Source: a virus
Taxonomy: Duplodnaviria > Heunggongvirae > Uroviricota > Caudoviricetes
IMG/VR virus record: IMGVR_UViG_3300031994_000003
Coordinates: 194,820 to 258,819 of that record
Strand: one strand, 5' to 3'
DNA length: 64,000 nucleotides
Shown here: piece after piece, positions 13,809 to 29,688 of the stretch
Numbering within the stretch: position 1 is the stretch's first letter
How the letters are laid out: the number at the start of each line of letters is the position of its first letter
The notes under the pieces: model-generated
The model's input: the letters and a program-made list of their open reading frames with translations, nothing else
What the model was told of the DNA's origin: nothing
The model's database searches: none
Position numbers and translations under genes: made by a program

Positions 13809-13820
13809 TAGTTCTCCTTT

Positions 13821-15017
13821 CTATCCATTGTGTTTTAATAGATATTCGCGTGAAACATTTTTAAATGAAAGTGTTTCATCAGTTGCTGATCTATATACAA
13901 AACCCTCACGCTTAACATTAGGATTAATTTTTGAATATCCATCAGCTTGTAATTTTAATTCTTCCATTGTATCTGGAAGTATATATTCAATATCAATAAT
14001 TGGAACCCACTCAATATTATCAATCTTACAAGAATCAAATAATGATATCGATTCGATTGGATTTAATCTTCTTACTTTATATTGATTCTTTTCTTTATTT
14101 CCTAATTTTAAATTAAATCCTCTAAATTCAAGACCTTTAATTTTATATGGATTACCTTGAATATCTCGACCATATGTTTCACCTTGTAAAATTACAATCT
14201 TTGAATTTGTTTCTCTACCAATTTTTACTAATGCATTTTCAATATTATATTGTTTTGCAATAGTATTATATACAGAATCTTCATTTAAGAACATTCTATT
14301 ATTTCTTGAACAAATTATAAAATTCCATTTTGTTTTCTTGCTATTTAAAAATTCAATAGCATATGTTGATGATGTTCCATCAACTTTTTCTGTAACAATT
14401 AAAGGTTGTTTATAATTTAAAATTTCAGGAATATTTTCACATCTTGTTTCATCAGTCTTTTTAATCCAAACAGGAAATTGTTTCTTAAACTTTAATTCCT
14501 CTTGTTTCTTTCTTATGAAATATTGTCTAATTTTAGGATGCTTATTAACAAATTTTTCAAACCATTTAAATCTAAACTTTAAAACAATCTTTCTTTCACC
14601 TTGTTTTCTTAAGAAGATTTCCTCAGCTGTTTCAATTTTCTTAATTCCTAAAACTTCTGTAACATCACGACCAATTGATAGATCTTCACCTAACTCAGGA
14701 AATAATGTGACAGGTAATGCTAGACCTTGTGAGATTACTCCAAATTTATTAAATTTTAATGTTTTAACCTTAAATCCTTTATTAGCTAAAAATGCGAATC
14801 TTGCATCAGCATCAGATACCTTTGAATCTATTTCAATATAAACACATTTATCTCCAATGTTAAATTCACCTTTCTTAGCAATTAAATTCCAGCCTAAAAC
14901 TGTGATTTTTTCAATAGCATCTGCACCATCAATTGATTCAATTGAATTAACCTTTTCAATATGTGCTAATGCTCTATTTTTTTCTTCGTTTTGATCTTTT
15001 ACTGTATAGATTTCCAT
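13821..15017 (-). CDS. ATP-dependent polynucleotide ligase (RNA ligase-like nucleotidyltransferase)
   Basis: The lysine-adenylation motif KxDG (TEKVDGTSSTYA) is present. It is preceded by a roughly 200 aa N-terminal domain, as in DraRnl-type RNA ligases. There is no KxDGxR arginine. Confidence 0.5.
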   Translation of the reverse strand: MEIYTVKDQNEEKNRALAHIEKVNSIESIDGADAIEKITVLGWNLIAKKGEFNIGDKCVYIEIDSKVSDADARFAFLANKGFKVKTLKFNKFGVISQGLALPVTLFPELGEDLSIGRDVTEVLGIKKIETAEEIFLRKQGERKIVLKFRFKWFEKFVNKHPKIRQYFIRKKQEELKFKKQFPVWIKKTDETRCENIPEILNYKQPLIVTEKVDGTSSTYAIEFLNSKKTKWNFIICSRNNRMFLNEDSVYNTIAKQYNIENALVKIGRETNSKIVILQGETYGRDIQGNPYKIKGLEFRGFNLKLGNKEKNQYKVRRLNPIESISLFDSCKIDNIEWVPIIDIEYILPDTMEELKLQADGYSKINPNVKREGFVYRSATDETLSFKNVSREYLLKHNG

Positions 15018-15183
15018 TATTTTTATCCTTCTTGTTATCTTTATAATTATAATATAAAATAATGTTTATTATATATATTGCTATAATAATACACACTATT
15101 ACTAAAAATATTATTCCTAATACCATAGATAATATATCCATAATATCACCTCATAATATTAATACGTAAAAAAATAGAAGCAA

Positions 15184-16647
15184 TTATGCTTCTATTTTTA
15201 CTACGTCATATCTTGGATCAGATAATACTTTCATCATATATTCATATGGTGTTGTATTTAATGAACCAAGTAAAGTCTTGAAAATTGATGCTGATGCACC
15301 AGATACAAGTTGAACGCCTTTCTTTGAAGTATCTGCTAAATGGAAAACCTCTTGACGAGAATTAACATTCCAGAATACAATTCCAGGAATCTTATAACCA
15401 GCATCTTCAAACTTAGCTTTTGTAATATCATAAAACTTTGTAAAACCACGTTCAACTGCACTATCAAATTCCATATCTGAAATTATGATTAATGACTTTG
15501 GCATATCCTTTTGTGGTGCATTTGCCTTAACAGCAGTATCTAAAATTAACTCCATTGCCTTAATGATGTCTGTAGATCCACCCCAGTCGGCACGCATAGT
15601 AGTGCCAATCTTAGCTTTTAATGTAGTTAATTTAGCAAGAGAAACAAATGCGGGTCTAGTGGAGAATGTTAAGAATAAATCTTTAAATGCTCCAACATTA
15701 TGTTCAGCAAAATAAATTGCTAAACCAACAGCCGTATCAATTGGTTGGCCACCATCCCATGTCATAGAACCAGAGGTATCTGCCATAACCAATACATTGT
15801 TTTCTCCATCAATGTAGTTTGGTAAAGCCTTCCATTGCTCTTCTGCTAATGCATCACCTTTCAATGAAGAACGCACTATATCATATGGATATAATACACT
15901 AGCATTTACCTTAGTCTTTCCAGCTTTTAAATCTGCAAGATATTTTTGATATCTTTCTGTATCATGACGCATAAATGCTGCTGAATATTTCTTCATTGCA
16001 TATGCTGGAACTTTAGAGTAATCGATATCAGTATAGTTCTTTTCAACTAACTTAGATTCAACAATATTAATTTTCTTTCTTAATACTGTTAATGCTTTAC
16101 GATATTCTCTTGGTGTCATATTAAAATGACCATATGTCTTTCTAGCTAATTTCATAGCCTTTCGAGAAGCATTTTCAGATTTTAACCATTTTCCTAATAA
16201 AGAAACTTGCTTGTTATTTTTTGCATTTTCAATATCTTCTTTGAATTGATGTAATAAGAAATCATATGCTTCCTTTTCAATTAAAGTGCCATCAAACGCA
16301 TAACATAAATCCCATCTATTAAACTCAGCAATTAAACCAATATTTAATTTCATTACTTCTGGGTCATTATTAGCTAACCATCTTAGGATCATAGAAGTTG
16401 CTCTTCTTTCACCTAAACCTCTACGAATATCAGCAGCATAGAATAAACATTTTAAAGCAATAAGCTTATCTGTATTATATGCTTTTTCAAAAATTTCTAA
16501 ACACTTTTCTTGATCAAGTGTTCTCATTGCACCAATGGTACCAAATAAATCTACTAAGAAATCATTTGTTGATTTATATGCCTCCATACCATTTTCTGTG
16601 ACTGTTTCATTTTGTTGAGCCATAGCTCCTTTAATAAATTTGTTCAT
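15184..16647 (-). CDS. vWA-domain protein with Ro60/TROVE-like architecture
   Basis: A helical N-terminal region is followed by the MIDAS motif DTSGSM and a vWA-like C-terminus. Length is 487 aa. Confidence 0.45.
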   Translation of the reverse strand: MNKFIKGAMAQQNETVTENGMEAYKSTNDFLVDLFGTIGAMRTLDQEKCLEIFEKAYNTDKLIALKCLFYAADIRRGLGERRATSMILRWLANNDPEVMKLNIGLIAEFNRWDLCYAFDGTLIEKEAYDFLLHQFKEDIENAKNNKQVSLLGKWLKSENASRKAMKLARKTYGHFNMTPREYRKALTVLRKKINIVESKLVEKNYTDIDYSKVPAYAMKKYSAAFMRHDTERYQKYLADLKAGKTKVNASVLYPYDIVRSSLKGDALAEEQWKALPNYIDGENNVLVMADTSGSMTWDGGQPIDTAVGLAIYFAEHNVGAFKDLFLTFSTRPAFVSLAKLTTLKAKIGTTMRADWGGSTDIIKAMELILDTAVKANAPQKDMPKSLIIISDMEFDSAVERGFTKFYDITKAKFEDAGYKIPGIVFWNVNSRQEVFHLADTSKKGVQLVSGASASIFKTLLGSLNTTPYEYMMKVLSDPRYDVVKIEA

Positions 16648-16773: not shown

Positions 16774-17038
16774 AAAAAAAGATGAGATATTACATCTCAT
16801 CTTTTGGAGGTAGGTATATGTTATAATTATTATCAGATCATATGGCAAATATATAATATGCTCATTCGTGATGTGCTTATATATTTCAGCATGCAAATCC
16901 ATATGTCCGTAAATCTTTTCAACAATAATTATAACATGCGCATATCTAGATACTTTTTGATTTACTTTTAACCCTAATTTTTAATATTGTTCTTCATGGT
17001 ATAAAAAATATTTTTTTGATTTTTTGTATTTTGTAACA

Positions 17039-17056
17039 TTGCTGTGTGTATCTAAT
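17039..17056 (+). repeat. direct repeat copy 1 TTGCTGTGTGTATCTAAT
   Basis: One of four copies of the motif TTGCTGT-RYGTAYCTAWW in the 640 bp intergenic region. Each copy is preceded by a T-tract. Confidence 0.6.
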
Positions 17057-17133
17057 GCGTATTGTTTATTATGCTAGGTACTTAAAATTAACAGTATTAT
17101 CCCAAATATAATCGTTATCTTTTAAATTAATCA

Positions 17134-17151
17134 TTGCTGTATGTACCTATA
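17134..17151 (+). repeat. direct repeat copy 2 TTGCTGTATGTACCTATA
   Basis: See copy 1. Spacing from copy 1 is about 95 bp. Confidence 0.6.
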
Positions 17152-17215
17152 TAATAGTAATATGTTTAAGGAATTTACTAGATACAAAAAACTTCACCCT
17201 AGTTCTTTTTTTTAT

Positions 17216-17233
17216 TTGCTGTACGTATCTAAT
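17216..17233 (+). repeat. direct repeat copy 3 TTGCTGTACGTATCTAAT
   Basis: See copy 1. Spacing from copy 2 is about 82 bp. Confidence 0.6.
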
Positions 17234-17321
17234 CCTTTATTCCTTATTTATTTTTCCCTTCCCAAAATAAGTTACTAGGTACAAAAAATATTTGTGTTGA
17301 AGACAAACTTTCTGAAATTTT

Positions 17322-17339
17322 TTGCTGTATGTACCTATA
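17322..17339 (+). repeat. direct repeat copy 4 TTGCTGTATGTACCTATA
   Basis: See copy 1. Spacing from copy 3 is about 106 bp. It is followed by GGAAAGGAGG. Confidence 0.6.
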
Positions 17340-17547
17340 GGAAAGGAGGTTCTATATTGTATAGAAGATAAGAAAGTAATCAAAGATCATAGATCTTTTT
17401 TATTGGAGGAAATCAATTTATTAAATATCTTATATTATTTAATATTTTTCTTTCTTCTATACACAATTATAATATATACTTAAAAATAAATTTATAAATT
17501 TAAGTATATATATTTTATTGTTCATATCACTTTTTTTAAAAATATTT

Positions 17548-18141
17548 TTATTTCTTTTCAGTCTTAATTGAATTCAATATTTTTGAATATTTCTTTTTAT
17601 CTTCGATAGTATATCTGTCACTTATAAAATCAGAATAATTAATTTTACTTTGTGGGCCAATAATATGTTCTTTATCATCATCAGTAAATTCTAATAATGA
17701 TAAATATCTACGAACATTAGTAGCAGATATTTTAATCATATTTCTACTAATAATCATTTCATTTAAATCAAAAACATCTTTATTTATCCAATTACTTCTA
17801 TTTTCCTCTATTCCTCTAATACAGAAATCAGGATATTCTCCACAATAGAATTTAATTGTATTCATCACATATTTACCCCACTCAGGAACATATCCGATTC
17901 CAATATCAAATATTGGCACGATTATTAATCTATCTTTACCATAGATTTTTTCTAACATTTCCTTACGTTCGTCAAATGTAAATGGGCATCGTTCAGTTCT
18001 AGATTCATTTGAAGATCCTAAAACCACAACGAATTTTTCACATAAATCTAAACCAAGATTAATTAATTGCTCATGGCCTTTATGAACAAATTGAAATCGC
18101 CCAACAATAAAACCTAATTTAAATTTTTTCATTATTTCCAT
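17548..18141 (-). CDS. nicotinamide/nicotinate mononucleotide adenylyltransferase (NadM/NadR-type)
   Basis: Nucleotidyltransferase motifs GRFQFVHKGH (HxGH) and ISATNVR. Length is 197 aa. Confidence 0.75.
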   Translation of the reverse strand: MEIMKKFKLGFIVGRFQFVHKGHEQLINLGLDLCEKFVVVLGSSNESRTERCPFTFDERKEMLEKIYGKDRLIIVPIFDIGIGYVPEWGKYVMNTIKFYCGEYPDFCIRGIEENRSNWINKDVFDLNEMIISRNMIKISATNVRRYLSLLEFTDDDKEHIIGPQSKINYSDFISDRYTIEDKKKYSKILNSIKTEKK

Positions 18142-18147
18142 CTCCAG

Positions 18148-18354
18148 TTACTCTATTATTTTAATAAGATAAATTCCAGAATATGAATTATAATTCATAA
18201 TATATTGAATATTATTTTCTTCACAATAATCTCTGATTTCATTAAATAAATCTTCATCAATTGTTGCTATGATGCCATCAGATGGCAAGGAAGAATATCG
18301 CTCAGAATATTCTTCCTTATTAATTACATTATTAAATACTTTATCAAAATGCAT
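18148..18354 (-). CDS. hypothetical protein (68 aa)
   Basis: Small intact ORF inside the NAD operon. Confidence 0.3.
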   Translation of the reverse strand: MHFDKVFNNVINKEEYSERYSSLPSDGIIATIDEDLFNEIRDYCEENNIQYIMNYNSYSGIYLIKIIE

Positions 18355-18356
18355 AA

Positions 18357-18908
18357 TTATTCAATAATATCAATATGCCACATCTTCATTGCTTCCAATG
18401 CGTTCTTATGAGATTCAGGAGTTACACAAGCACAACATCTTTCAACAATTGAAATATGAGATTCTGGGGCTGCGGCCTTAATACCACTAGCTTGATTATC
18501 TACGCAGATACCTGTACAATATCCAAAAATCTTAAAATCTAATGTTGGCCCATATTTCTTAACAAGTTTCTTTAGAACTTTACTCCATTTATCATAACCA
18601 AAAGATTTCTTATTAATAATCTTTACTTTACATTTATTTTCTTTTTGTTTCTTAAGAACGGCGTCCATAACTTCTTTTTTAATTTGCCATCCTTCAGTTC
18701 CTTTGATGCAATGTTCAACTGGTAATCTACTACCTTCCATTGTATTCATATAATTCTTATCATGAGTATCTCTGGTTAAGAAGATATACTTGCCTTTAAA
18801 ATTATTAATTTCCTCTATAATATTAGGAATTCTTTTAATGGCTTCTTCATTTCTTAATGCTCCATCGATAAAATCATTTTGTACATCTACAATTACTAAT
18901 ACTTCCAT
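18357..18908 (-). CDS. pncA: nicotinamidase, isochorismatase family (PncA-like)
   Basis: VLVIVDVQNDF, a metal-binding DTHD stretch, and the catalytic Cys in GYCTGICV. It is adjacent to pncB. Confidence 0.7.
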   Translation of the reverse strand: MEVLVIVDVQNDFIDGALRNEEAIKRIPNIIEEINNFKGKYIFLTRDTHDKNYMNTMEGSRLPVEHCIKGTEGWQIKKEVMDAVLKKQKENKCKVKIINKKSFGYDKWSKVLKKLVKKYGPTLDFKIFGYCTGICVDNQASGIKAAAPESHISIVERCCACVTPESHKNALEAMKMWHIDIIE

Positions 18909-18910
18909 AA

Positions 18911-20098
18911 TTATTCTCCTCTTCTTCTTGCAACTGCACTCTTTAAATATTCTAGATATCCTTCATCTTGGCACATTGCTTTTTCAGGATTATCTGAAAT
19001 TTTTGCAACAGGTCGGTCATTTACATATTGCAATTTAATAACAATATTTAATGGTTCAACACAAGTATCATTAGTAATAAATGTACCGATACCGAATGAT
19101 ACCTTAATTCTATCTTTGAAATATTCATAGATAGCTTGTGCCTTATCAAAGTTTAATGAATCACTAAATAGTAATGTTTTAGTTTTAGGATCAATTCCTA
19201 ACTTTTCATAATGAGCAATAATCTTTTCGCCCCATTCATAAGGGTCACCTGAGTCATGGCGAACACCACTATAGTGATTTGCTTGTACCTTATCAAAATC
19301 CTTTAAGAAACAATCTGTTGTAAGAGTATCTGTTAAAGCAGTACCCAAATCACCTTCATATTCCTCAAACCATTCCTTTAAAGCTACCTTGTTAGACATA
19401 GCTACTGGAATGTCCTCAATGCCTTGATACATTTGAACATATTCATGTGCGTATGTACCAATTGGAGTTAAGCCTAATTTATATGCTAAATAAACATTTG
19501 ATGTACCAACACAATTTTTAGTGTCGATCATTTGCTTAACAACCCATTCTTGGAATTCTCTTGATAGTCTTCTACGACAACCAAATTCAGCAAATTTAAA
19601 AGTATATTTATTAGTAACAAGGAAATCTATTACCTTATCAGATGCTCTTTTTACAGCACTATCTTTTAATTCTTGATAATCATACTTCATTCTGAAATAT
19701 ACTTCATTAACAATTTCAAGTAAATAAATTTCAAATGGAGAAACCATCCAAACTGGTCCTTCAATGCTAATCTTTAGTCTGCCATTATCATCTAAAGAAG
19801 TTGTTACATAACGTCTTAAAGGTCTATATAATCTTAAAGCTTCTACATAATCATACTTTAAAAATCTAATTGAGTGTAGATAATTAATTTCATCATCAGT
19901 AAAACTTAATGTACATAAATGATCAATTTGTGCATTGATTTCATCTAACATTTCATAAGTAAATTTTACATCCTTATTTCTACACTTAAAGATATATTTT
20001 CCTCTTAAATTTGGATGCTTGTGAAACATTACTTGTTGCATTGTAAATTTATAAAGATCTGTGTCTAATAGACTAATAACGATTGGTTCTAATTTCAT
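18911..20098 (-). CDS. pncB: nicotinate phosphoribosyltransferase
   Basis: The N-terminus IVISLLDTDLYKFTMQQVMF matches E. coli PncB [20 protein letters not shown]. The 395 aa length is typical. Confidence 0.8.
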   Translation of the reverse strand: MKLEPIVISLLDTDLYKFTMQQVMFHKHPNLRGKYIFKCRNKDVKFTYEMLDEINAQIDHLCTLSFTDDEINYLHSIRFLKYDYVEALRLYRPLRRYVTTSLDDNGRLKISIEGPVWMVSPFEIYLLEIVNEVYFRMKYDYQELKDSAVKRASDKVIDFLVTNKYTFKFAEFGCRRRLSREFQEWVVKQMIDTKNCVGTSNVYLAYKLGLTPIGTYAHEYVQMYQGIEDIPVAMSNKVALKEWFEEYEGDLGTALTDTLTTDCFLKDFDKVQANHYSGVRHDSGDPYEWGEKIIAHYEKLGIDPKTKTLLFSDSLNFDKAQAIYEYFKDRIKVSFGIGTFITNDTCVEPLNIVIKLQYVNDRPVAKISDNPEKAMCQDEGYLEYLKSAVARRRGE

Positions 20099-20126
20099 AT
20101 TTATTTTCCTCTTTTCCTTTTTATAA

Positions 20127-20732
20127 TTATAATGTTAATTTAAAAATATTTAATATTGAAAGCACACCAAGATATCCTGATAATGTTAATTCTAATTCAT
20201 TATTTTTTACCTTTTTCTGTAAAACAGTTAAAGGAATCTTATGAACTTCAATATCTTCTGTTTCTTCTAAATGTTGAGTACCTTCTTTACTTAACTCAAC
20301 AATGGCAAACATATTTGCCTCATCAGTCATTCCAGCACAAGCAGCTAATGGATAGTTTTGAATAAGTTTAAATGATTTAACCTCTCCACCAACTTCTTCA
20401 TTAACCTCTCTTGTAATTGCTGTTTCAAATGACTCATTATTTTCAATTAAACCAGCTGGGAAAGACATTACATATCTTCCCATAGCTGATCTAAATTCTT
20501 TTACCATAATGGCATATGGAATTCCATCTTCTACAATATATGTAAAGCATTCAACTGCTGTTGGTTTTACTTTATCAGGATTATTCATAACTAAATCTCT
20601 TTCATCATGTCTTGATACAAAGAAATAATTACGAAGTTTTCCATCTGTCATATATTGAGCTGTATAAAATTTTAAGAATTTTTTATCTAAATCCTTTTTT
20701 ACATTTAATAATTCTTGTGTTTTTAAACTCAT
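20127..20732 (-). CDS. Nudix hydrolase (ADP-ribose/NAD pyrophosphatase-like)
   Basis: Nudix box ETAITREVNEEVGGEV. Confidence 0.7.
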   Translation of the reverse strand: MSLKTQELLNVKKDLDKKFLKFYTAQYMTDGKLRNYFFVSRHDERDLVMNNPDKVKPTAVECFTYIVEDGIPYAIMVKEFRSAMGRYVMSFPAGLIENNESFETAITREVNEEVGGEVKSFKLIQNYPLAACAGMTDEANMFAIVELSKEGTQHLEETEDIEVHKIPLTVLQKKVKNNELELTLSGYLGVLSILNIFKLTL

Positions 20733-20748
20733 ACTATTACCTCAAATC

Positions 20749-21369
20749 CTAATTATGATCTGCCTCATCTAACATTTTAACGGTATTTTCTAAAACAGAA
20801 TATAATAATGAATCTTTTGGAATATTATATTTTTCACAAAGACCGTCAAATGATAATAATAAATTACCATTGTTTTGTCTTAAAGAAGATGCTTTACAAT
20901 CACAAAGCATTTCAATAATATCGATAAGTGTCATATCTGCAATACCATTTTTGAAATGTTCAGGGTGATGTCTTTCTTCCCTAAAATGATGATCTAGAGC
21001 AGGTTTTAAAGCTAATTTGCATTCATCATATTCAGGAGAACCATATGTTAAATATTTTAACTTTGCATTTTGTTCAGCAAAAAGTTCTACTTCTGGAGAA
21101 TACAATTTAGACACATCGTGTGTAAATGCTCTTTTTTCTAATAAAGAAATTACATAGAACATAATTTCTTCAACCTTTTTAGTATGTTGAATAGTTTCCC
21201 ATCTACATTCAAAAATTGACATGTAATCTTCTGGTGTTTCATTCTTCTCTACTAAAAAACGTGTTTTTCCACAACATTCACATTTATCTTCAACATCAAA
21301 AAATATTAAATCTTCTGGTTTAGCACCTGGTGCAATTTTACTTAAATAACATTTTTTACAAAAACCCAT
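20749..21369 (-). CDS. HD-domain phosphohydrolase (YfbR/5'-nucleotidase-like) with N-terminal Cys cluster
   Basis: RW...H...AFTHD...D spacing resembles YfbR-type HD hydrolases. The N-terminus has C-x-C-C and CKKC cysteines. Confidence 0.5.
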   Translation of the reverse strand: MGFCKKCYLSKIAPGAKPEDLIFFDVEDKCECCGKTRFLVEKNETPEDYMSIFECRWETIQHTKKVEEIMFYVISLLEKRAFTHDVSKLYSPEVELFAEQNAKLKYLTYGSPEYDECKLALKPALDHHFREERHHPEHFKNGIADMTLIDIIEMLCDCKASSLRQNNGNLLLSFDGLCEKYNIPKDSLLYSVLENTVKMLDEADHN

Positions 21370-21384
21370 TTTATCACCTTTTCC

Positions 21385-21624
21385 TTAATGTTTTCTTTTA
21401 TGTTTATTATCAAATAAACTAATGAAAAATACTACAATAAATACTAATAATGATATTGCTAGTACTGTAGCAGGGCCGATCCATAATGGAAAAACAACCC
21501 AAAACCATGACCAATCAATAACATGTGTTAATTTTAAAATTAAAAATACTATAAATAATATAAACCCTATACCACATCCACCTGATGTAGCGGCAGCTGT
21601 TCCTCTTGAATCATTATCGTTCAT
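21385..21624 (-). CDS. small hydrophobic membrane protein (79 aa)
   Basis: Two predicted TM helices (FILFIVFLILKL ... LAISLLVFIVVFFI). Confidence 0.4.
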   Translation of the reverse strand: MNDNDSRGTAAATSGGCGIGFILFIVFLILKLTHVIDWSWFWVVFPLWIGPATVLAISLLVFIVVFFISLFDNKHKRKH

Positions 21625-22157
21625 TATTGCTCTCCTCCATACTTGTATTTTAAATTTTTAAATATTTCTTTATTATCAGCAATATCAATAAATGTATTTA
21701 ATGCTGAAATTGCTGTATAATTTCTAACATCTTCACGTTCTGGTTCATCAGATGTTAATTTAACATCATATAATTCATTATCATATGCTATTGTCATAAA
21801 AACTTCTCCTTGTGGGTGCCCATCATCAGGACCTGGTCCAGATACACCACTAACAGCTATTGCACAGTCTGCATCATATAATTTCATAACTCCTAAACAC
21901 ATCATTCGCGTAGTCTCAAAATTATATGCGCCATTTTTATCTAAGAAGTCTTTATCAACACCTAAAACCTTATTCTTAATTTGATTGGTATAGACAGTTA
22001 CACCACCCTGATAATACTTACTAATTCCTGGAACTGAACAGATGCGTTCTGAAATCTTTCCAGCAGTTAGAGATTCAGCAACTGCTAACTTCAAATGATT
22101 AGTTTCTAGAATTGTTTTTAATCTATTTAAATCATATAATTCAATCATATTATTCAC
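21624..22157 (-). CDS. pncC: CinA C-terminal domain protein (PncC-like NMN deamidase)
   Basis: LKLAVAESLTAGKISERI corresponds to the CinA motif AESCTGG. The 177 aa length is typical of the CinA C-domain. Confidence 0.7.
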   Translation of the reverse strand: MNNMIELYDLNRLKTILETNHLKLAVAESLTAGKISERICSVPGISKYYQGGVTVYTNQIKNKVLGVDKDFLDKNGAYNFETTRMMCLGVMKLYDADCAIAVSGVSGPGPDDGHPQGEVFMTIAYDNELYDVKLTSDEPEREDVRNYTAISALNTFIDIADNKEIFKNLKYKYGGEQ

Positions 22158-22159
22158 CT

Positions 22160-23002
22160 TTAAATTCTAATTTCTAAACCTGATTCAAACTTTGGCATTA
22201 ATGTAACCTTATGTAAATTAGCAGCATGCATTCTATCAATTTTTTCTTTATGTACTAAATTTAAAATTTCGCCAGTTCTAATATATCTATCTAATTCATC
22301 ATAAGTAAAACCAAGTTTTTCTTCATCAGATTTTCCTGACATTCCATCATCTGGTGTCTTAAAAATTAAATCCTTTAATTCATCATAAATTCCAAGTCTA
22401 GTAGCACATACTACACCAACTTGTAATACTTCTGCAACAGTTAAATTTGCTAATGGACTAAAATCTCCGGCACTATCACCAAACTTTGTTGAATATCCAA
22501 CCCAATCCTCACTTAAATTACAAGTATTAACAACTCGTGTATTTCCTAATATAGCAGCAATACCATATAGTGTTGTCATTCTAACTCTAGCCGGAGTGTT
22601 TGTGTCATACATATCACCAAAAGTATTATTTACTCTCATTATTTCTTGCATTCTTTTACTTAATAAAGAACCTTTGCAAAAGTCTTCAAAAGAAGAGTGC
22701 CAAATAGCTGATGCTAAATCATTACACACATTACCAATATTAATAATATTAGCATTAATTCCAAGTAATTTGCAAACTTTTTTACTATCATTAATATCCT
22801 TTTGCATTCCATTTGGCATCATAACACCAAATACTTTGTCTTTTCCAATTGCTAGAACTGACAACATTGCAGTGATTGTTGAATCTTTACCACCACTAAT
22901 TCCTATTGCTATATTACAGGTACCGGCTTGTTCTCTAATCCAAGCAATAATATTATCTGTAATTAATTCAGCATTAAATTCATATTTATCATACATCTGC
23001 AT
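22160..23002 (-). CDS. nadE: NH3-dependent NAD+ synthetase
   Basis: PP-loop SGGKDS within IAIGISGGKDSTITAML. Length is 280 aa. Confidence 0.8.
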   Translation of the reverse strand: MQMYDKYEFNAELITDNIIAWIREQAGTCNIAIGISGGKDSTITAMLSVLAIGKDKVFGVMMPNGMQKDINDSKKVCKLLGINANIINIGNVCNDLASAIWHSSFEDFCKGSLLSKRMQEIMRVNNTFGDMYDTNTPARVRMTTLYGIAAILGNTRVVNTCNLSEDWVGYSTKFGDSAGDFSPLANLTVAEVLQVGVVCATRLGIYDELKDLIFKTPDDGMSGKSDEEKLGFTYDELDRYIRTGEILNLVHKEKIDRMHAANLHKVTLMPKFESGLEIRI

Positions 23003-23018
23003 TATTTATATTCTCCTT

Positions 23019-23657
23019 TTAGTTATTTAAAATACTATTAAAATCTGATATTTCATTAAATCTGTCTTTATATAATGAATATATGTTAATTAATTTTTTA
23101 CGAGATGAAGAACTCAATTCTTCATGCTTTAGTAAATATATCATATGATTTACATACCAATCAGTAAAAATATTATCTATTATACTTAATAAATGAGATA
23201 ACAAATCTACTTGACATGAAATCTTAATTTTCTTAACAACATTTTCCATATATTCATTTATTTTTCCATTATCAATATAATAATTAAACATATTCTTTAA
23301 TTCTTCTTCATATTTATCGCACGGATCATAATAAATTGCATCAACTATATCTGTTAAAATACGTGCATCACTATCAGGATTAATAGTTATATTATTAGTA
23401 CTTTTATAATTTGATATAAATCTACTTAATAATTTTACTTGATAATCATTTAATTCTATTACATTAGTCGGATATTCTCTTTCATCTAATGTAAGTAGTA
23501 GTGACTTATCTTTAATTGTAGCATTAGTTAATTTAATTATTTCATCAAATGCTTTAGATTTTAATGGAACTAAATCATCATCTAATGCTTCATAATGTGC
23601 ATCTTTAATAAAAGATTTATGTAATGATTCTGCTAAATCATCACTAGTATCATGCAT
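23019..23657 (-). CDS. hypothetical protein (212 aa)
   Basis: Intact ORF with no motif recognised. Confidence 0.35.
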   Translation of the reverse strand: MHDTSDDLAESLHKSFIKDAHYEALDDDLVPLKSKAFDEIIKLTNATIKDKSLLLTLDEREYPTNVIELNDYQVKLLSRFISNYKSTNNITINPDSDARILTDIVDAIYYDPCDKYEEELKNMFNYYIDNGKINEYMENVVKKIKISCQVDLLSHLLSIIDNIFTDWYVNHMIYLLKHEELSSSSRKKLINIYSLYKDRFNEISDFNSILNN

Positions 23658-23685
23658 AATAATACACCATCCTTTTATTTAATTT

Positions 23686-24066
23686 TTACTTCACCATCCA
23701 AATATAACAAACCAAATAAGTTAAAATAACCTGAACAAAATGAATAGATTGATCAGTAATTAAATTTATTTTATGTCTATTTGCTTTAATATCATCAACA
23801 GTTGCATGTATTATAAAATTAATAGGAATTAACCACCAAATAAAATTGCCACTAATCATAGTTGGAATCATTATTGATATGCTCCACATCATTGCATGAC
23901 AAGAAACTGACATTAAATAATCATATTTATATTTTTCATCAGGTGCATGTTGTTCCCACCATTCTTTTTGTTTTAAATTACTTAGACACATTCCTTGCAA
24001 AAAGAAATCATCTATAAAATGTGCTAAGAATATTAATGCTAACCACATAATATTATCATTCATCAT
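23686..24066 (-). CDS. hypothetical membrane protein (126 aa)
   Basis: Several hydrophobic helices. Confidence 0.35.
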   Translation of the reverse strand: MMNDNIMWLALIFLAHFIDDFFLQGMCLSNLKQKEWWEQHAPDEKYKYDYLMSVSCHAMMWSISIMIPTMISGNFIWWLIPINFIIHATVDDIKANRHKINLITDQSIHFVQVILTYLVCYIWMVK

Positions 24067-24316
24067 TACTTTCCTCCTTATTAATTTCTATTGTTATTCT
24101 ATATCCATTTTTAGAATAACTATTTTTATAAGAATCCAAAGTTTTATTATTCACACCATCAATTATAGTATTAAATACTGCTTGATCTTTAATTCTCTCT
24201 TTTAGAGAGTCATATGCATTTTCAAAATAATCATCATTTTCTTTTGTTCTATTTGCTATTTGATATCTATGGTCTAGTAATAATCTTATAGCTCTTAATA
24301 TTTCTAAATCATCCAT
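24056..24316 (-). CDS. hypothetical protein (86 aa)
   Basis: Intact ORF. Confidence 0.3.
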   Translation of the reverse strand: MDDLEILRAIRLLLDHRYQIANRTKENDDYFENAYDSLKERIKDQAVFNTIIDGVNNKTLDSYKNSYSKNGYRITIEINKEESNDE

Positions 24317-24520
24317 AAACTACTCCTTTATATATTTAATCATAGCTTTTGATTTCTTTTGTGAAATATCTTCAGCTTTGTATTTATGAGATAATAATAA
24401 AGAGAGAACTTCTTTTGCTTGTTCTCCCTTATTACATATTATCTGACCTTTTATTTTTGTATAATTATTAGTTGTTTTTTCTACATGATTTTTCATAGAA
24501 GATACCTCCTTGTTTTTTCA

Positions 24521-24859
24521 TTATGCTAGTTTATATGTTACTTCTTTAAATCCTATGTTGTCGCAGAAAAAATACCTAGAATATCTTGAATCTATATCAC
24601 GCAACTCAACAATATCTCCTACACTCATAGAATGAGGAGCAAAATTTTTTGGAAGTTCCATATTAAATTTATAAAATAATTGTTCTAAAAATTTATAAAT
24701 GTTATCAATATCTATTTTATTTATATTACCATTTAAACCACTATCATCTTGCCATACACTAACATAATCACCAATGCTAATTTTATCGTCAATTAGGTCT
24801 AGGCTTTTAAATAAATTTTTATGATTATGTGGTAAATACCATAAATAATATCGTATCAT
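24521..24859 (-). CDS. hypothetical protein (112 aa)
   Basis: Intact ORF that overlaps the NADAR gene start by 4 nt. Confidence 0.35.
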   Translation of the reverse strand: MIRYYLWYLPHNHKNLFKSLDLIDDKISIGDYVSVWQDDSGLNGNINKIDIDNIYKFLEQLFYKFNMELPKNFAPHSMSVGDIVELRDIDSRYSRYFFCDNIGFKEVTYKLA

Positions 24860-25338
24860 AAGACATCTCCATTTACAATATCTCTATAATATTTTCTAAT
24901 ATCCATTAATACCTTACCTAATAAATTTTGACCAGTACCCTTTTTTCCAACACCCCAAATATAATCAAATGGAGAGTTTTCAAATAAATATGCATCCTTA
25001 GTATCAATTAATAATTTTCTTAAATCCTTATTATGAAAATATTTTGCCATATTTACTTGATACATAATATTATAACGAATTTCATTCCATTTTGTATCAT
25101 CATAATTTTTAACTTCTCTACCAAGTCGTTTGATTTTTAATGGATCTGTTTCATTAAGTATTTTTGCAGCTGTTTCATTATCATTAAATGTCATTGCTTT
25201 CATCCACATAAATGCTTGCTCAGTGCAATTAAATTGTCTATGGGCATATACAAATTTACATGGATAAAAGTTACTAAAACACTTATAATCACCTTCTGTG
25301 TGTGACCAAAATCCAATTTTATTCATTTTATTCACCAC
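24856..25338 (-). CDS. NADAR (YbiA/DUF1768) domain protein
   Basis: Motifs FSNFYP, TEQAFMWMKA and DYIWGVGKKGTGQNLLGKVLMDIR match the NADAR family. Confidence 0.65.
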   Translation of the reverse strand: MVNKMNKIGFWSHTEGDYKCFSNFYPCKFVYAHRQFNCTEQAFMWMKAMTFNDNETAAKILNETDPLKIKRLGREVKNYDDTKWNEIRYNIMYQVNMAKYFHNKDLRKLLIDTKDAYLFENSPFDYIWGVGKKGTGQNLLGKVLMDIRKYYRDIVNGDVL

Positions 25339-25544
25339 CTAATACGCGATGAGTTCCTTGTAAAACAGATCCAATTTTTTCACAATCAATATTTATCACA
25401 GCATCATCTGCATCAGCATGACCTGATAATTTATATTCTGTAAATCTATCTGTTAAACAAATTGGCTTATTTCCATATTTATTTAATAATTCACTTGAAA
25501 AAATAACTAAGTCTTGAATAGTTTTTATTTCCATAGAATCCTCC

Positions 25545-26327
25545 TTATTCATCTAAAAACACATATTGCTCAACATAATTTTTATCTTCAGAAAATCTTG
25601 GAATATTTTCATCAATAATCCATTCACTACATCCTTGTTCATCATATCTTTTAATACAACAACTTCCACGTTGATATTTAACTGGATATGTTGTAATATC
25701 GTGATCTTTCTTAGCAATTAAAATTCTAGTATCATTTAATTTCTTTCCACATAATTCATTTTGTGAATATAATGATTGAGCAACTGAATTAATTGCATTT
25801 CTTTCAGCATCTAATTGTCTCCAAACAAAGCAATTATTTACTTCTTCTTTTGGAATATTAAATGCTCTAGCATCAAAATATGCACCTTTTTCAAATGCAT
25901 TATAATATACAACATTTTGATTTTCATCATTATCTGATTTTTTCATTCGATCAGTCATTAATCTACCAAATGCTCTGTTAAATGCTAATGCTGCCATTGA
26001 TGCTGCTACTGATGTAATCTTCTCTAATTTGTAATCAAACCATGCACTTGTTTCCAAAGTATCATAATCAATTAATAATAATGTGATTTCATCAGATTGA
26101 GTATATCCAATTTTACAACCTTGAACATGCTCACATAAATATTTAGTTGTTTCTTGCATTGCTCTTGAGAATAAATCATCAAAAGGTTTTACAAATTTTC
26201 TTGTAAAAGTATGAAAAGCACAACCATCTAAACGAATAATAACAGGAGTTCTCCTAGTTAATTTATGTTTAGAAATATTTTCATAATTTGCTTTCATTCT
26301 ATCTCCAATTTTATCTACAAATGACAT
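25545..26327 (-). CDS. Thg1-like protein (tRNA-His guanylyltransferase family 3'-5' nucleotidyltransferase)
   Basis: VIIRLDGCAFHTFTRKFVKPFD, GYTQSDE and FDARAFNIPKEEVNNCFVWRQLDAERNAINS align with Thg1 VVVRLDGRNFHRF, AYGQSDE and FDGRVVVYP...SWRQAD. Confidence 0.8.
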   Translation of the reverse strand: MSFVDKIGDRMKANYENISKHKLTRRTPVIIRLDGCAFHTFTRKFVKPFDDLFSRAMQETTKYLCEHVQGCKIGYTQSDEITLLLIDYDTLETSAWFDYKLEKITSVAASMAALAFNRAFGRLMTDRMKKSDNDENQNVVYYNAFEKGAYFDARAFNIPKEEVNNCFVWRQLDAERNAINSVAQSLYSQNELCGKKLNDTRILIAKKDHDITTYPVKYQRGSCCIKRYDEQGCSEWIIDENIPRFSEDKNYVEQYVFLDE

Positions 26328-26342
26328 ATTGCTTACCTTCTT

Positions 26343-27047
26343 TTACCATTTTTTGTATAATTTACCATTTTCTCTAAATACTCTATATCTATATTTAGAT
26401 GCCAAACAATTTGTATCATATCTCAAACTGTCTGTATTAAAATTAATTTGCCTGAAAACTTCTGAACTAATCTTATGCGAATCAATATATTCATTTACTT
26501 CAGTATCCTTCTTTGCATGCTGAAGATCCTTTATTGTTATTTGATCAACATATTGTCCATTATAGTTTTCTTTAATATAATCAAAATTTTCTACTGTTGC
26601 TAAAATAACCCATCTTATAATTGGTTTAGTTGCCTTATTTTCATTACTATTTCTTACTTCTGCGATTTTTATAGCTTTTGCTATATCAGATGGCATTGCT
26701 AATGAATATGCAATAACATCAAAATCTTTTACAAATGATTCATCAAATGACTGTATGTTGTGTGTTTGTAATTCAATCTTCTGTATATTTGGCCGTGTAT
26801 CTTTATCAATAAAATTAATTACCTCATGAATCCAATTTTTATTTAAAGTTGGTTCTGTAGCACCTGTTATTATAATATCACCATTCATATTTTGTAATAT
26901 TTTATTTAATTTATTGAAATATTTTGCTTTATTTATATTATATAAATTTTTAAATTTATTATTATTTGATGCAATACACATTGGACAATTATATAGACAT
27001 TTTTGATATGGAACACATAATTGTAAATTTAAATTATATTTTTTCAT
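26343..27047 (-). CDS. radical SAM enzyme (QueE/activase-like; function unresolved)
   Basis: CxxxCxxC cluster CLYNCPMC near the N-terminus and a GGE-like motif TGATEPTL. Length is 234 aa. Confidence 0.55.
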   Translation of the reverse strand: MKKYNLNLQLCVPYQKCLYNCPMCIASNNNKFKNLYNINKAKYFNKLNKILQNMNGDIIITGATEPTLNKNWIHEVINFIDKDTRPNIQKIELQTHNIQSFDESFVKDFDVIAYSLAMPSDIAKAIKIAEVRNSNENKATKPIIRWVILATVENFDYIKENYNGQYVDQITIKDLQHAKKDTEVNEYIDSHKISSEVFRQINFNTDSLRYDTNCLASKYRYRVFRENGKLYKKW

Positions 27048-27367
27048 ACTACCTCCATAATTTTTAAATCTTCTTTATTTAATGACCACAATTCTCCATA
27101 AGATTTTAATGGATATATAATTTTATAATCTCCTACTTTTATTACCTTATTATCAAGATCTATTGATACATCAAAATCCATTTGTAATGTTATAATTGTG
27201 TTATTAAATTTAAAATATACATAGTCTGTGTCTTTTGATGCTAATAATTTAAAAAGTATAACTGCATCAATTTCATACTTTTTTTCTAATTTTTCAATCT
27301 CTTGAATCTTATTTTGGTTCATATTATTTTCCTTTCTGAATATGGATATATCATGAGTATTTGTCAT
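27044..27367 (-). CDS. hypothetical protein (107 aa)
   Basis: Intact ORF overlapping the radical SAM gene start. Confidence 0.3.
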   Translation of the reverse strand: MTNTHDISIFRKENNMNQNKIQEIEKLEKKYEIDAVILFKLLASKDTDYVYFKFNNTIITLQMDFDVSIDLDNKVIKVGDYKIIYPLKSYGELWSLNKEDLKIMEVV

Positions 27368-27448: not shown

Positions 27449-27523
27449 TGGCAGGGGTAGAAGGACTCGAACCCACACTCACGGTTTTGGAGACCGGCTT
27501 GCTACCATTGACAATATACCCCT
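27449..27523 (-). tRNA. tRNA-Trp (CCA)
   Basis: Acceptor AGGGGTA/TACCCCT, anticodon loop CTCCAAA, T-arm GTGGG-TTCGAGT-CCTTC, CCA encoded. Confidence 0.8.
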
Positions 27524-27526
27524 ATA

Positions 27527-27602
27527 TGGTGCCACCGGGTGGAATTGAACCACCGACACAAGGATTTTCAGTCCTTTGCTCTACCAACTGAGCTACAGTG
27601 GC
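27527..27602 (-). tRNA. tRNA-Phe (GAA)
   Basis: GCCACTG...AAGGA-CTGAAAA-TCCTT...GGTGG-TTCAATT-CCACC-CGGTGGC-A-CCA. Confidence 0.85.
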
Positions 27603-27603
27603 A

Positions 27604-27692
27604 TGGAGGATAGGGTCGGATTCGAACCGACGCGGACCGACGTCCCTAACAGTGTTGCAGACTGCCCTCTTCAGCCTCTTGAGTACCTACCC
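27604..27692 (-). tRNA. class II (long variable arm) tRNA with Cys anticodon GCA and U73
   Basis: GGGTAGG-TA-CTC-AAGAGGCTGAA-GAG-G-GCAGT-CTGCAAC-ACTGT, then variable hairpin GGAC-GTCG-GTCC, then GTCGG-TTCGAAT-CCGAC-CCTATCC-T-CCA. The D-arm is nearly identical to that of tRNA-Ser(GCT) at 30557. Confidence 0.6.
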
Positions 27693-27712
27693 TATGTATT
27701 AGATTGATTATC

Positions 27713-28018
27713 TTAACCAATCGTTAAATTTATAAAATGATTAATAACATCAGGTAAATCAGTTTTATTTATTTTAATATATTTACCATTATTCCACTTA
27801 TAATACTGTGTTATAGTGTCATCAACTATTGGATATATTCCAGGATTTGCTGCTTCTATAACGGCATATGGATAATATCCTGCTTCATAGATATCACAAC
27901 AGTTACTTAAAATACGTTGTTCGGCTTCTTCAAAAGTTTCAAAAAAGCCAACAGTTCTAATACCTGATGGACCATATTTATCATCAATTTTATTAATTGT
28001 TCCTATGAAGTAAATCAT
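27713..28018 (-). CDS. hypothetical protein (101 aa)
   Basis: Intact ORF within the tRNA array. Confidence 0.35.
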   Translation of the reverse strand: MIYFIGTINKIDDKYGPSGIRTVGFFETFEEAEQRILSNCCDIYEAGYYPYAVIEAANPGIYPIVDDTITQYYKWNNGKYIKINKTDLPDVINHFINLTIG

Positions 28019-28041
28019 TTTTTTTCTCCTTTAACTTTAAA

Positions 28042-28117
28042 TGGTGGCCCCGGAGGAACTCGAATCCTCGACCCACAGATTAAAAGTCTGTTGCTCTACC
28101 AACTGAGCTACGGGACC
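28042..28117 (-). tRNA. tRNA-Lys (TTT)
   Basis: Anticodon arm ACAGA-CTTTTAA-TCTGT, T-loop TTCGAGT, CCA encoded. Confidence 0.85.
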
Positions 28118-28124
28118 ATATTGA

Positions 28125-28200
<76 letters not shown>

Positions 28201-28374
28201 ATAAATATCATTAACATAATTAACGCTTGAACCTCTAGCCTCCAAGGACATATCCAAATTTACTTTTAATAAATTCAAATACCCTCAGGTGGGATTTGAA
28301 CCACACGATAATTTATTTGCTACCTCTGTTACTTCTGCAGAGTCTTAATTATGTTATGTTATTATTTATATTGT

Positions 28375-28451
28375 TGGTGGATCCACAAGGGCTTGAACCT
28401 TGGACCGCCCGGTTATGGGCCGGGTGCTCTAACCAACTGAGCTATGGATCC
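28375..28451 (-). tRNA. tRNA with CAT anticodon (elongator Met or Ile2)
   Basis: GGATCCA...CCCGG-CCCATAA-CCGGG...CAAGG-TTCAAGC-CCTTG-TGGATCC-A-CCA. Position 33 is C. Confidence 0.75.
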
Positions 28452-28613
28452 ATAACGTGTTCATATTCGATCTCGTTACGCTGTCGTCATTTAGCGCCTG
28501 AACACACATACATACACCTACTATGTTATTTCAAACATACCCTCATTCCTTCCTACCAAATGTATGGCGCTTCTGCTCTCCGCGTTTAAATCTCCGTAAA
28601 ATACGAATCATTA

Positions 28614-28690
28614 GGGTGGCTTCAGTGGGACTCGAACCCACGACCTATCGGGTATGAACCGATTGCTCTAACCAACTGAGCTACAAAGCC
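28614..28690 (-). tRNA. tRNA with CAT anticodon (Met/Ile2)
   Basis: GGCTTTG...ATCGG-TTCATAC-CCGAT...GTGGG-TTCGAGT-CCCAC-TGAAGCC-A. The 3' CCA is not encoded. Confidence 0.75.
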
Positions 28691-28817
28691 AATAAATAAT
28701 TATTTGGATGATTTGGCAATTATCATCATCAGGAAACAGCTCTTAACTGCTCTTCTTCGCACCTTATGCAAAAACCGGGGATGGTTCTGTTCTTTACCAC
28801 TTAAACTACAAATAATA

Positions 28818-29231: not shown

Positions 29232-29258
29232 ATTTCATATCTCCTTAATTTAATAAAT

Positions 29259-29346
29259 CTGGTGCCTCGTCTCGGATTCGAACCGAGATGGAATTTAATC
29301 CACGGATTTTAAGTCCGTTGTGTCTCACCAGTTGCACCAACGAGGC
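29259..29346 (-). tRNA. tRNA-Leu (TAA), class II
   Basis: GCCTCGT...ACGGA-CTTAAAA-TCCGT-variable arm GGATTAAATTCC...CTCGG-TTCGAAT-CCGAG-ACGAGGC-A-CCA. Confidence 0.85.
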
Positions 29347-29353
29347 ATAATAT

Positions 29354-29430
<77 letters not shown>

Positions 29431-29433
29431 TCA

Positions 29434-29506: not shown

Positions 29507-29601
29507 GAACTTTAATTTTCAGATGCATCTATTAGGTAAAGTTCTTAACCTTTCTATATATAAAATAGCGTTCATGACTCGCCTTTTATAAACTTATATC
29601 A

Positions 29602-29678: not shown

Positions 29679-29688
29679 ATTATAAAAA

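Follow-up and report, generated by a model that had tools for sequence, protein, structure and literature searches.

The subject of this report is a set of nicotinamide adenine dinucleotide (NAD+) salvage genes in a 64,000-nucleotide stretch of viral DNA (Caudoviricetes; positions 194,820 to 258,819 of the IMG/VR record IMGVR_UViG_3300031994_000003), hereafter the window. A preliminary description, made from the letters of the sequence, had placed consecutive minus-strand genes at 17548-25338, and the open reading frames (ORFs) agree with these positions. The co-directional minus-strand run reaches 27367 and comprises 19 ORFs, with neighbours spaced from an 11-nt overlap to a gap of 28 nt. Families were assigned by profile searches against Pfam, NCBIfam, and PHROG, and the nearest solved relatives were taken from the Protein Data Bank (PDB); gene identities, the integrity of catalytic motifs, the conservation of a four-gene core, and its bacterial counterpart were computed in this way and by scans of viral and bacterial loci. 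Seven of the eight functions first named were confirmed by Pfam/NCBIfam with intact catalytic motifs, namely an adenylyltransferase for nicotinamide mononucleotide/nicotinate mononucleotide (NMN/NaMN), PncA, PncB, a Nudix hydrolase, PncC, NadE, and a NADAR protein. The eighth, a 'YfbR-like HD hydrolase', has to be renamed, as it corresponds to Pfam DUF5662 and is not recognisable as a YfbR or HD protein.

The first gene in coordinate order (17548..18141; all genes of the block lie on the minus strand) encodes a 197-aa NMN/NaMN adenylyltransferase of the NadM/archaeal NMNAT type, which matches PF01467 at 43.8 bits and carries the HxGH motif as 'FVHKGH' together with 'ISATNVR'. Its best NCBIfam models are NadM and archaeal NMNAT, all below their cutoffs, and its best PDB matches are 1f9a (MJ0541) and the NadM structures 2qjo and 2qjt. 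No NadD model matched it, so the block does not contain the NadD family member of a classical Preiss-Handler set. A 68-aa ORF with no Pfam or NCBIfam match (18148..18354), which gene calling on an independent Logan contig also gave, separates it from the gene for the nicotinamidase PncA (18357..18908), which is predicted to convert nicotinamide into nicotinate and NH3. PncA matches PF00857 at 69 bits, and alignment to the P. horikoshii structures 1ilw and 1im5 shows that D8, K100, the Cys of 'GICV', and the metal ligands D47, H49, and H66 are kept. Because the NCBIfam equivalog score is only 20 bits (cutoff 174), the assignment of PncA is based on these residues and on genomic context.

The next gene (18911..20098) encodes nicotinate phosphoribosyltransferase (PncB), predicted to form NaMN from nicotinate and phosphoribosyl pyrophosphate (PRPP). 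It passes both equivalog cutoffs with a wide margin (NF003704, 507 bits against 379; TIGR01514, 450 bits against 269.55), and in the alignment to PDB 3os4 (326 bits) its phosphohistidine motif GTYAHE corresponds to GTQAHE. It is followed by a stand-alone Nudix hydrolase resembling ADP-ribose (ADPR)/ADP-sugar pyrophosphatases (20127..20732; PF00293, 37.5 bits), whose Nudix box is intact, whose best NCBIfam models are NudE and ADPR diphosphatase, both below cutoff, and whose best PDB matches are the ADPRase 1v8i and NUDT5. Beyond the DUF5662 gene (20749..21369) lies a gene for a predicted two-helix membrane protein of 79 aa (21385..21624) with no significant family, adjoining that for PncC. Homologues of this small protein occur near NadD-NadE fusions in two related loci (L005 and L019) and beside PncA in a phage contig from human faeces (L036), and a role in precursor uptake is conceivable.

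The PncC gene (21624..22157) encodes a CinA C-terminal domain, a predicted NMN deamidase converting NMN to NaMN, with scores of 133 bits to PF02464 and 110.7 bits to TIGR00199 (cutoff 68.9); its 'AESLTAGK' and 'Y..NQIK' regions align with CinA/PncC structures, the PDB matches being 5kol and the CinA structure 4ct8. The last salvage gene (22160..23002) encodes a single-domain, NH3-dependent NadE with an SGGKDS P-loop, supported by PF02540 (131 bits), TIGR00552 (124.6 bits; cutoff 63.65), and phrog_11189 'NAD synthetase' (151.8 bits). Its PDB matches are 2e18 (102 bits) and 3fiu (72 bits), and GISGGKDS is aligned with both. Five small ORFs (23019..24859), of 212 aa, 126 aa (a DUF3307 membrane protein), 86 aa, 58 aa, and 112 aa (YodL-like), then separate NadE from the NADAR gene. 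Pfam recognised only the DUF3307 (26.7 bits) and YodL (52 bits) members, NCBIfam gave nothing for the five, and no evidence of their membership in an NAD pathway was obtained.

With moderate confidence, we read 17548-23002 as a phage-borne deamidating (Preiss-Handler/pyridine-nucleotide-cycle) NAD+ salvage operon that would have been selected mainly by host defences that destroy NAD+. That its products constitute a functional salvage module is very likely. In the proposed scheme, PncA would convert nicotinamide to nicotinate, PncB would combine nicotinate with host-made PRPP to give NaMN, and PncC would deamidate NMN to NaMN and so join the same pool. The NadM/archaeal-type adenylyltransferase would then convert NaMN to nicotinate adenine dinucleotide (NaAD), which NadE would amidate with NH3 to NAD+. 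A full pathway leading to NAD+ from nicotinamide or NMN, as initially suggested, is thus plausible, with predicted enzymes for all steps. The accompanying idea that ADPR fragments are also turned back into NAD+ was not borne out. No ORF of the block gave a PRPP-synthetase-like or Adps-like match in Pfam or NCBIfam; hence PRPP would have to come from the host, and ADPR would not be rebuilt directly into NAD+. Instead, the Nudix hydrolase would most likely cleave free ADPR to AMP and ribose-5-phosphate, thereby removing a reactive by-product and returning its carbon to the host PRPP pool.

The description of the route as Preiss-Handler holds for PncA, PncB, and NadE but needs qualification at the adenylyltransferase. 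Since this enzyme is of the NadM/archaeal type and not NadD, we infer the order of the last two steps. Another order is known from Francisella, in which NadE would act as an NMN synthetase (NaMN to NMN) and the NadM-type enzyme would then convert NMN to NAD+, so that NaAD is never formed. The type of the adenylyltransferase and the lack of NadD in the block would suit this order, as would the second-best solved relative of NadE, 3fiu, which we take to be the F. tularensis enzyme; that NadE reportedly functions as an NMN synthetase in partnership with NadM. However, PncC, whose gene is only 2 nt from that of NadE, would reverse the synthesis of NMN in a futile cycle, the best PDB match of NadE is the ordinary archaeal NAD synthetase 2e18, and the NadE orthologues of L005 and L019 carry a fused domain of the NadD type, implying that their substrate is NaAD. 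The Francisella order is therefore considered unlikely. Under the Preiss-Handler order, the adenylyltransferase appears to be equivalent to NadD in function, judging from the composition of bacterial operons and from the NadD-type enzymes that occupy the same slot in related phages.

The bacterial operons were found in a scan of one genome per species, which yielded 482 PncB relatives. The best 80 of these 482 were examined; all are 66-71% identical to the PncB of the window, and all come from metagenome-assembled genomes (MAGs) of rumen or gut Clostridia, including Ruminococcus, Lachnospiraceae, Oscillospiraceae, and Eubacterium. In at least nine of these Clostridia loci the genes are tightly arranged as a PncA-NadE-NMNAT-PncB operon; compared with the window proteins, its products are about 42, 47, 39, and 68% identical, respectively, the NMNAT identities ranging from 39 to 45%. 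One example, L060 from the Ruminococcus sp. MAG RUG13966, has the same four clustered enzymes including a NadM-type adenylyltransferase (PncB 68%, NadE 47%, PncA 41%, and NMNAT 39% identical to the phage proteins). It is truly bacterial, as AsnB, FeoAB, VanW, HAD, and MatE genes flank it, and the operon is preceded by NrtR, a regulator with Nudix and winged-helix domains. The pairing of a NadM-type adenylyltransferase with PncA, PncB, and NadE in a cellular operon supports the view that the phage enzyme set makes up a complete pathway.

The phage version differs from the Clostridia operon in gene order, in the lack of NrtR, in its guanine-plus-cytosine (GC) content of 27%, and in the interleaving of its core with genes for the Nudix hydrolase, DUF5662, the 79-aa membrane protein, and PncC. 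Nudix, PncC, NADAR, radical SAM, and Thg1 proteins of the window type were absent from the bacterial operon loci, and DUF5662-like genes lay within 3-4 kb of the bacterial operon in only two. The four-gene core of the phage was probably captured from a host NrtR-regulated operon, and would then have been extended with the phage additions PncC, Nudix, DUF5662, and the small membrane protein. The sequence comparisons point to Clostridia as the donor and the probable host group.

The close match of PncB to Clostridia proteins and the existence of the same four-gene set as a bacterial operon would also be expected if the block were bacterial DNA, introduced by contamination or mis-assembly or representing a host operon beside a prophage. 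This explanation is extremely improbable. The block has a GC content of 0.26-0.29, equal to that of the flanking phage genes, compared with 0.41-0.58 in the operon-bearing bacterial loci (median over the Clostridia PncB loci, 0.49); over most of the window GC is 0.22-0.31, and it rises to 0.35-0.37 only in the tRNA region. On both sides and on the same strand, PHROG profiles recognised phage replication and transcription genes, such as those for a DNA polymerase, an SbcC-like nuclease, an RNA ligase, a UvsX-like recombinase, and a Dda-like helicase. In addition, the identical gene order was recovered on the independent Logan contig, the remaining three core proteins share only 39-47% identity with bacterial ones, and NrtR is missing from the phage block.

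The phage nature of the block, as originally asserted, therefore stands. The window contains split RNA polymerase (RNAP) beta-subunit families typical of jumbo phages (PHROG), 28-29 tRNA genes, and one tmRNA, and contigs as long as 332,878 bp carry its exact DUF5662 and radical SAM proteins (P0001 and P0121). Neither capsid nor tail genes were found in the 64-kb window, whose unannotated ORFs gave no PHROG structural matches; related NAD clusters adjoin Gp23 and T4-portal genes (L028 and L037). Because of the replication and transcription genes, the contig size, and the related viral contigs, the assignment of the window to a jumbo phage is well supported. Among 50,697 deposited phage genomes, megablast returned nothing that matched the block, and tblastn with PncB against deposited phage genomes matched only 13 records. 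Among them, Atu_ph07 has an isolated PncB without a salvage cluster, and two records named 'Acinetobacter phage MD-2021a' were rejected as phage because their PncB is a plain bacterial chromosome gene (serB, phoBR, psd). The contigs in question (CAKLQH020000008.1 and CAKLQF020000012.1; L032), with serB, dtd, psd, phoBR, and ribB around pncB, appear to be bacterial sequences misfiled as phage.

A PncB-anchored scan of IMG/VR gave 22 related loci (44-75% identity), whose gene content was assessed by BLAST with the window proteins and extra seeds. PncA is present in 20 of the 22, and NadE and an adenylyltransferase in 17 each. The conserved core is thus PncA-PncB-adenylyltransferase-NadE, which Nudix, PncC, and NADAR accompany only occasionally: PncC was seen again in just L001 and L037, where it adjoins NadE as well, the stand-alone Nudix gene is seen in the window only, and L020 is the one related locus with NADAR. 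In an independent T4-like contig (L028), the genes form a compact radical SAM-NadE-PncB-PncA-NMNAT cluster with a PncB 72% identical to that of the window.

Three non-orthologous enzyme types fill the adenylyltransferase slot. The first is the NadM type of the window, fused to a Nudix-containing domain in L012, L013, and L020; the second is a NadD-type domain at the N-terminus of NadE in L005 and L019 ('GTFNPIHxGH ... SSTEIR', followed by 'GISGGKDS'); and the third comprises NadD/eukaryotic-NMNAT-like proteins of about 210 aa ('GSFNPxTNAH ... ISST') encoded between PncB and NadE. That non-orthologous enzymes replace one another within a conserved cluster is a strong argument that the adenylyltransferase step is needed and works with NadE. 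The fusion proteins of L012 (6041-7465) and L013 (7930-9384), 474-484 aa in length, combine an N-terminal NrtR-homologous region (Nudix plus winged helix) with a C-terminal NMNAT; the N-terminal region is 35% identical to the NrtR region of L111, making this an unusual fusion of regulator and enzyme. In L037, whose PncB is 74% identical to that of the window, a gene for the RNA 2'-phosphotransferase Tpt1 (PF01885; 6101-6670) lies between the radical SAM gene and NadE, and an ART-PolyVal ADP-ribosyltransferase is encoded downstream of the NAD cluster (12618-13793). The Tpt1 of L037 links phage NAD salvage to NAD-dependent RNA repair; tblastn with this protein found no Tpt1 in the window.

With regard to purpose, the module would keep NAD+ available during infection, and the likeliest selective pressure would be the destruction of NAD+ by host NADase defences (TIR, SIR2, SEFIR, and similar). 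Entry through PncA fits such a role because NADase defences release nicotinamide. A second benefit of the module would be the recycling of the nicotinamide and NMN that NAD-consuming enzymes of the phage itself release. By analogy with phage pathways whose rebuilding of NAD+ defeats NADase defences, NARP1 and NARP2 (10.1101/2024.02.11.579819) and NARP3 (PMC13464706), the chance that counter-defence is the main selected role of the module is put at about even.

Several points weigh against the block being a salvage operon selected mainly by host defences. Characterised NadM/archaeal-type adenylyltransferases prefer NMN, so the use of NaMN by the window enzyme is read from the composition of the operon. 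NMN, the substrate of PncC, is a by-product of NAD-dependent DNA ligase (LigA) and not of NADase defences. The route has four steps, consumes up to three ATP plus PRPP, and would be slower than NARP1 or NARP2. In L037, the NAD-consuming Tpt1 inside the cluster and the ART-PolyVal protein downstream fit internal recycling equally well. In the literature searched, no experimental validation of a deamidating phage NAD pathway was found. The analysis covered a 64-kb window of a genome of at least 333 kb. The genes are presumed to be co-transcribed, although none of the scans marked out a transcription unit: the promoter scan gave 114 promoter-like sites against 104 expected in such AT-rich DNA, the terminator scan found none in the block, and the Rfam matches were confined to tRNAs and the tmRNA and included neither an NAD+ riboswitch nor any further cis-regulatory element.

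Some of these points would be accommodated if the genes were an auxiliary operon for metabolic provisioning, sustaining or recycling NAD+ for the phage's own consumers and a large burst and not selected by NADase defences. Tpt1-type RNA repair and ADP-ribosyltransferases yield nicotinamide and NAD-dependent ligase yields NMN, so the presence of PncC, as a means of salvaging the LigA by-product, and the gene content of L037 are in keeping with provisioning, as is the fact that the salvage core is a housekeeping operon in the host. The surroundings of the block are also rich in tRNA and RNA-repair genes, among them those for Thg1, an RNA ligase, a phosphoesterase, and a DUF2828/TROVE-like protein, and a tRNA array. 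On the other hand, Tpt1 is lacking in the window, no LigA or ADP-ribosyltransferase was detected among its annotated ORFs, and all experimentally tested phage NAD pathways (NARP1-3) serve counter-defence, even though the two roles are compatible. Provisioning as the sole driving force is regarded as possible, if somewhat improbable, and selection by NADase defences is retained as the preferred explanation.

Clusters of this type have been described before. Li et al. (2024, Microbiome; PMC11662467) reported complete salvage or Preiss-Handler pathways in 174 of 668 gut jumbo phages, with clustered pncB-nadD-nadE in, e.g., Kuafu_71, and proposed counter-defence against Sir2-type depletion; the surveys of Iyer et al. 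(PMC7824862, PMC9503650) covered phage NAD/ADPR systems including NadV, NadM, NadR, NADAR, and Nudix. The novelty claimed in the preliminary description was thus overstated: both the cluster type and the counter-defence idea had been published (PMC11662467), and the window is a solid further example. With a genome above 200 kb and predicted enzymes for all steps of one pathway, its phage would count as an NAD-jumbo phage in the sense of that study, which it resembles in being a large gut/rumen phage with clustered pncB, adenylyltransferase, and nadE genes for a deamidated route. It differs in the PncA entry, in the NadM/archaeal-type enzyme where the paper names nadD, and in the addition of PncC, a stand-alone Nudix, DUF5662, and the small membrane protein; PncC, Nudix, and NADAR have no mention in PMC11662467. 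The likely donor or host group also differs, being Clostridia for the window core and Bacteroidota, as predicted, for the Kuafu clade (PMC11662467). The variant features of the window are therefore the PncA entry, the NadM-type enzyme in place of NadD, PncC, the split Nudix, and the Clostridia-derived core.

The enzymatic type had been called distinct from the known NARPs, and this was upheld for NARP1 (Adps + Namat), NARP2 (NadV + NadM), and NARP3 (PnuC + NadR). Like NARP2 and the NadV + NatV pair of Vibrio phage KVP40, the window module would make NAD+ from nicotinamide and PRPP with a NadM-type NMNAT and an ADPR-pyrophosphatase-type Nudix, which are separate genes in the window and fused in KVP40, as in L012, L013, and L020. 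Unlike NARP2, which is experimentally validated, the window module is known from sequence alone and has no Nampt/NadV: its phosphoribosyltransferase matches the NAMPT family phrog_448 at only 83.6 bits but PncB at 507 bits, and the route comprises four steps versus two, with deamidation by PncA and re-amidation by NadE. With NARP1 and NARP3 it shares the principle of a phage-encoded route restoring depleted NAD+. It differs from NARP1 in lacking both a PRPS-like Adps and Namat, so that ADPR would not be reused directly; the window phosphoribosyltransferase is PncB and not Namat, as it exceeds the equivalog cutoffs for PncB and shares 68% identity with the bacterial enzyme. Compared with NARP3, there is no PnuC match, no NadR kinase domain in the 197-aa NMNAT, and no precursor import.

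The NADAR protein (24856..25338), of the YbiA/PnNADAR type, matches PF08719 at 160.7 bits and TIGR02464 at 154 bits (cutoff 73.7), and its catalytic region is aligned with PnNADAR (PDB 8bau, 80.5 bits) and YbiA (2b3w). It had been assigned to the same block, and it is indeed a co-directional neighbour; since it lies five ORFs from NadE and accompanies salvage genes in only one of the 22 loci (L020), it is probably a unit separate from the salvage genes. A Glu in the last strand ('LFE..WG') places it in the YbiA branch by the subfamily rule, according to which the last-strand residue defines the NADAR subfamily (PMC11125620). The reversal of DarT1 modification and the countering of DarTG1 by phage NADARs are established (Johannesman et al. 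2025, PMC11825919), and by analogy the window protein is a plausible candidate for an AdfN-like guanine-ADP-ribose glycohydrolase acting on DNA with an anti-DarT1-like role. As with AdfN (PMC11825919) and PnNADAR/YbiA, it is a stand-alone NADAR without an N-terminal extension, in this case phage-encoded like AdfN, but it is of the Glu type, as opposed to the His-type T4 AdfN and the Asp-type DarG1. The YbiA-like branch also holds housekeeping N-glycosidases for riboflavin intermediates, the group behind its TIGR02464 score, which weighs against an anti-DarT1 role; near the YbiA group, only one phage NADAR was found in the PMC11825919 study.

Two further proteins recur near the salvage genes. 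The DUF5662 protein has an N-terminal four-Cys zinc ribbon and a helical, possibly HD-like, metal-binding domain, and its gene lies directly upstream of PncB in eight of the 22 loci. A profile search against PDB sequences gave nothing meaningful, Foldseek against PDB gave no match at E<1, and a literature search returned no paper mentioning DUF5662. Identification with the ADPR-1''-phosphate phosphatase of extended NARP1 was dropped, since that enzyme is a Macro-domain protein, and an exclusive role in the NAD pathway was rejected, as DUF5662 also adjoins lysis genes (L024) and DUF2828 genes (L026). In L026, two DUF5662 copies stand beside a DUF2828 gene interrupted by a GIY-YIG endonuclease. 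The second protein is a small radical SAM protein of viperin-like fold (26343..27047; C11, C17x3C21x2C24), with the CX3CX2C cluster motif and the partial TIM-barrel core of radical SAM enzymes. It is rare, with 13 homologues among 5.8 billion proteins, and at least five arrangements place it within an NAD cluster or next to one. Between this gene and that of NADAR lies a gene for a Thg1-like tRNA-His guanylyltransferase (25545..26327; PF04446, 103.6 bits; phrog_4717, 261 bits), whose counterparts sit within the NAD clusters in L001 and L037 and close to the cluster in L005.

It is possible that DUF5662 and the radical SAM protein destroy ADPR-derived immune signals or by-products for salvage, or make or unmake a modified nucleotide. 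That they represent new enzymatic parts of an extended phage NAD/ADPR module, a deamidating counter-defence of a 'NARP4' type, is a speculative proposal that is quite unlikely to be correct. A wider view would take 17548-27367 as one integrated counter-defence island, in which NAD+ rebuilding acts together with NADAR (removal of ADPR from DNA), DUF5662 and Nudix (degradation of ADPR signals or by-products), the radical SAM protein (nucleotide modification), and Thg1 (tRNA repair). The absence of any gap longer than 28 nt across the 19 ORFs and the recurrent position of DUF5662 upstream of PncB are consistent with such an island, as is the fact that the NAD clusters in L001 and L037 include radical SAM and Thg1 genes and those in L016/17/21 and L028 the radical SAM gene; jumbo-phage surveys also tie NADAR, Macro, and Nudix domains to ADPR processing and NAD-dependent RNA repair (PMC7824862). 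However, NADAR co-occurs in only one of the 22 loci, DUF5662 and the radical SAM protein are also found away from NAD genes, and many of the loci come from related phages, so that shared ancestry could explain the synteny. An integrated island is accordingly judged decidedly doubtful, and the salvage operon proper is taken to comprise 17548-23002.

Some other features of the window were also recorded. Directly upstream of the block, about 28 tRNA genes and the tmRNA form a dense array (27449-36334, minus strand); the tmRNA is at 29766-30135, with the tag ANKLIANAMINQVVFA, an odd tRNA with a 2-nt anticodon call is at 29433-29505, and a tRNA-Asn(att) call is absent from the Rfam listing. The tRNA-His gene of the array (36093-36168) is accompanied by the phage Thg1. 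Downstream of the NMNAT gene is a non-coding stretch of about 650 nt (16903-17547), in which Rfam finds nothing and to which the 18-nt motif TATAGGTACATACAGCAA (minus strand) is confined within the window; its four copies, at 17039, 17134, 17216, and 17322, are spaced by 82-106 nt, and every copy is accompanied by another short repeat, CTAGGTAC/CTAGATAC. Further downstream, an RNA-repair-like set (12903-16647, minus strand) consists of a metallophosphoesterase, a PF09414 RNA ligase, and a DUF2828/DUF7788 vWA protein that is labelled RNA-binding in PHROGs, and in L004/L022 (7871-13089) DUF5662-PncB-PncA has these DUF2828 and RNA ligase genes as its immediate neighbours. Among the replication genes is one for an HD-domain protein similar to the 3'-5' exoribonuclease YhaM (5652-6647, minus strand; NF010007, 119 bits, below cutoff).

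On the upstream side, separate minus-strand ORFs at 36560-38002, 38140-39879, 45504-47699, and 51285-52025 match jumbo-phage RNAP beta-subunit families, which suggests that the RNAP genes of the window are of a split multisubunit type; a large HNH/homing endonuclease gene (phrog_559, 408 bits) stands directly beside one of these ORFs. At about 54000-64000, the coding strand and the GC/AT skew flip, with plus-strand genes from 57974 and positive GC skew, and the plus-strand ORFs tested there matched no PHROG or Pfam family.

NAD+ depletion is among the commonest outcomes of bacterial anti-phage immunity. If the module merely topped up NAD+ for the phage's own enzymes, it would be an ordinary set of auxiliary metabolic genes. 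As a candidate for NAD+ restoration, the locus is compact, with a defined minimal core (PncA, PncB, adenylyltransferase, and NadE) and a clear bacterial template. The recurrent placement of DUF5662 and the viperin-like radical SAM protein suggests some unfamiliar NAD- or nucleotide-related chemistry in these phages, and the locus as a whole appears to illustrate the takeover of an entire host salvage operon by a phage, with the loss of its regulator.

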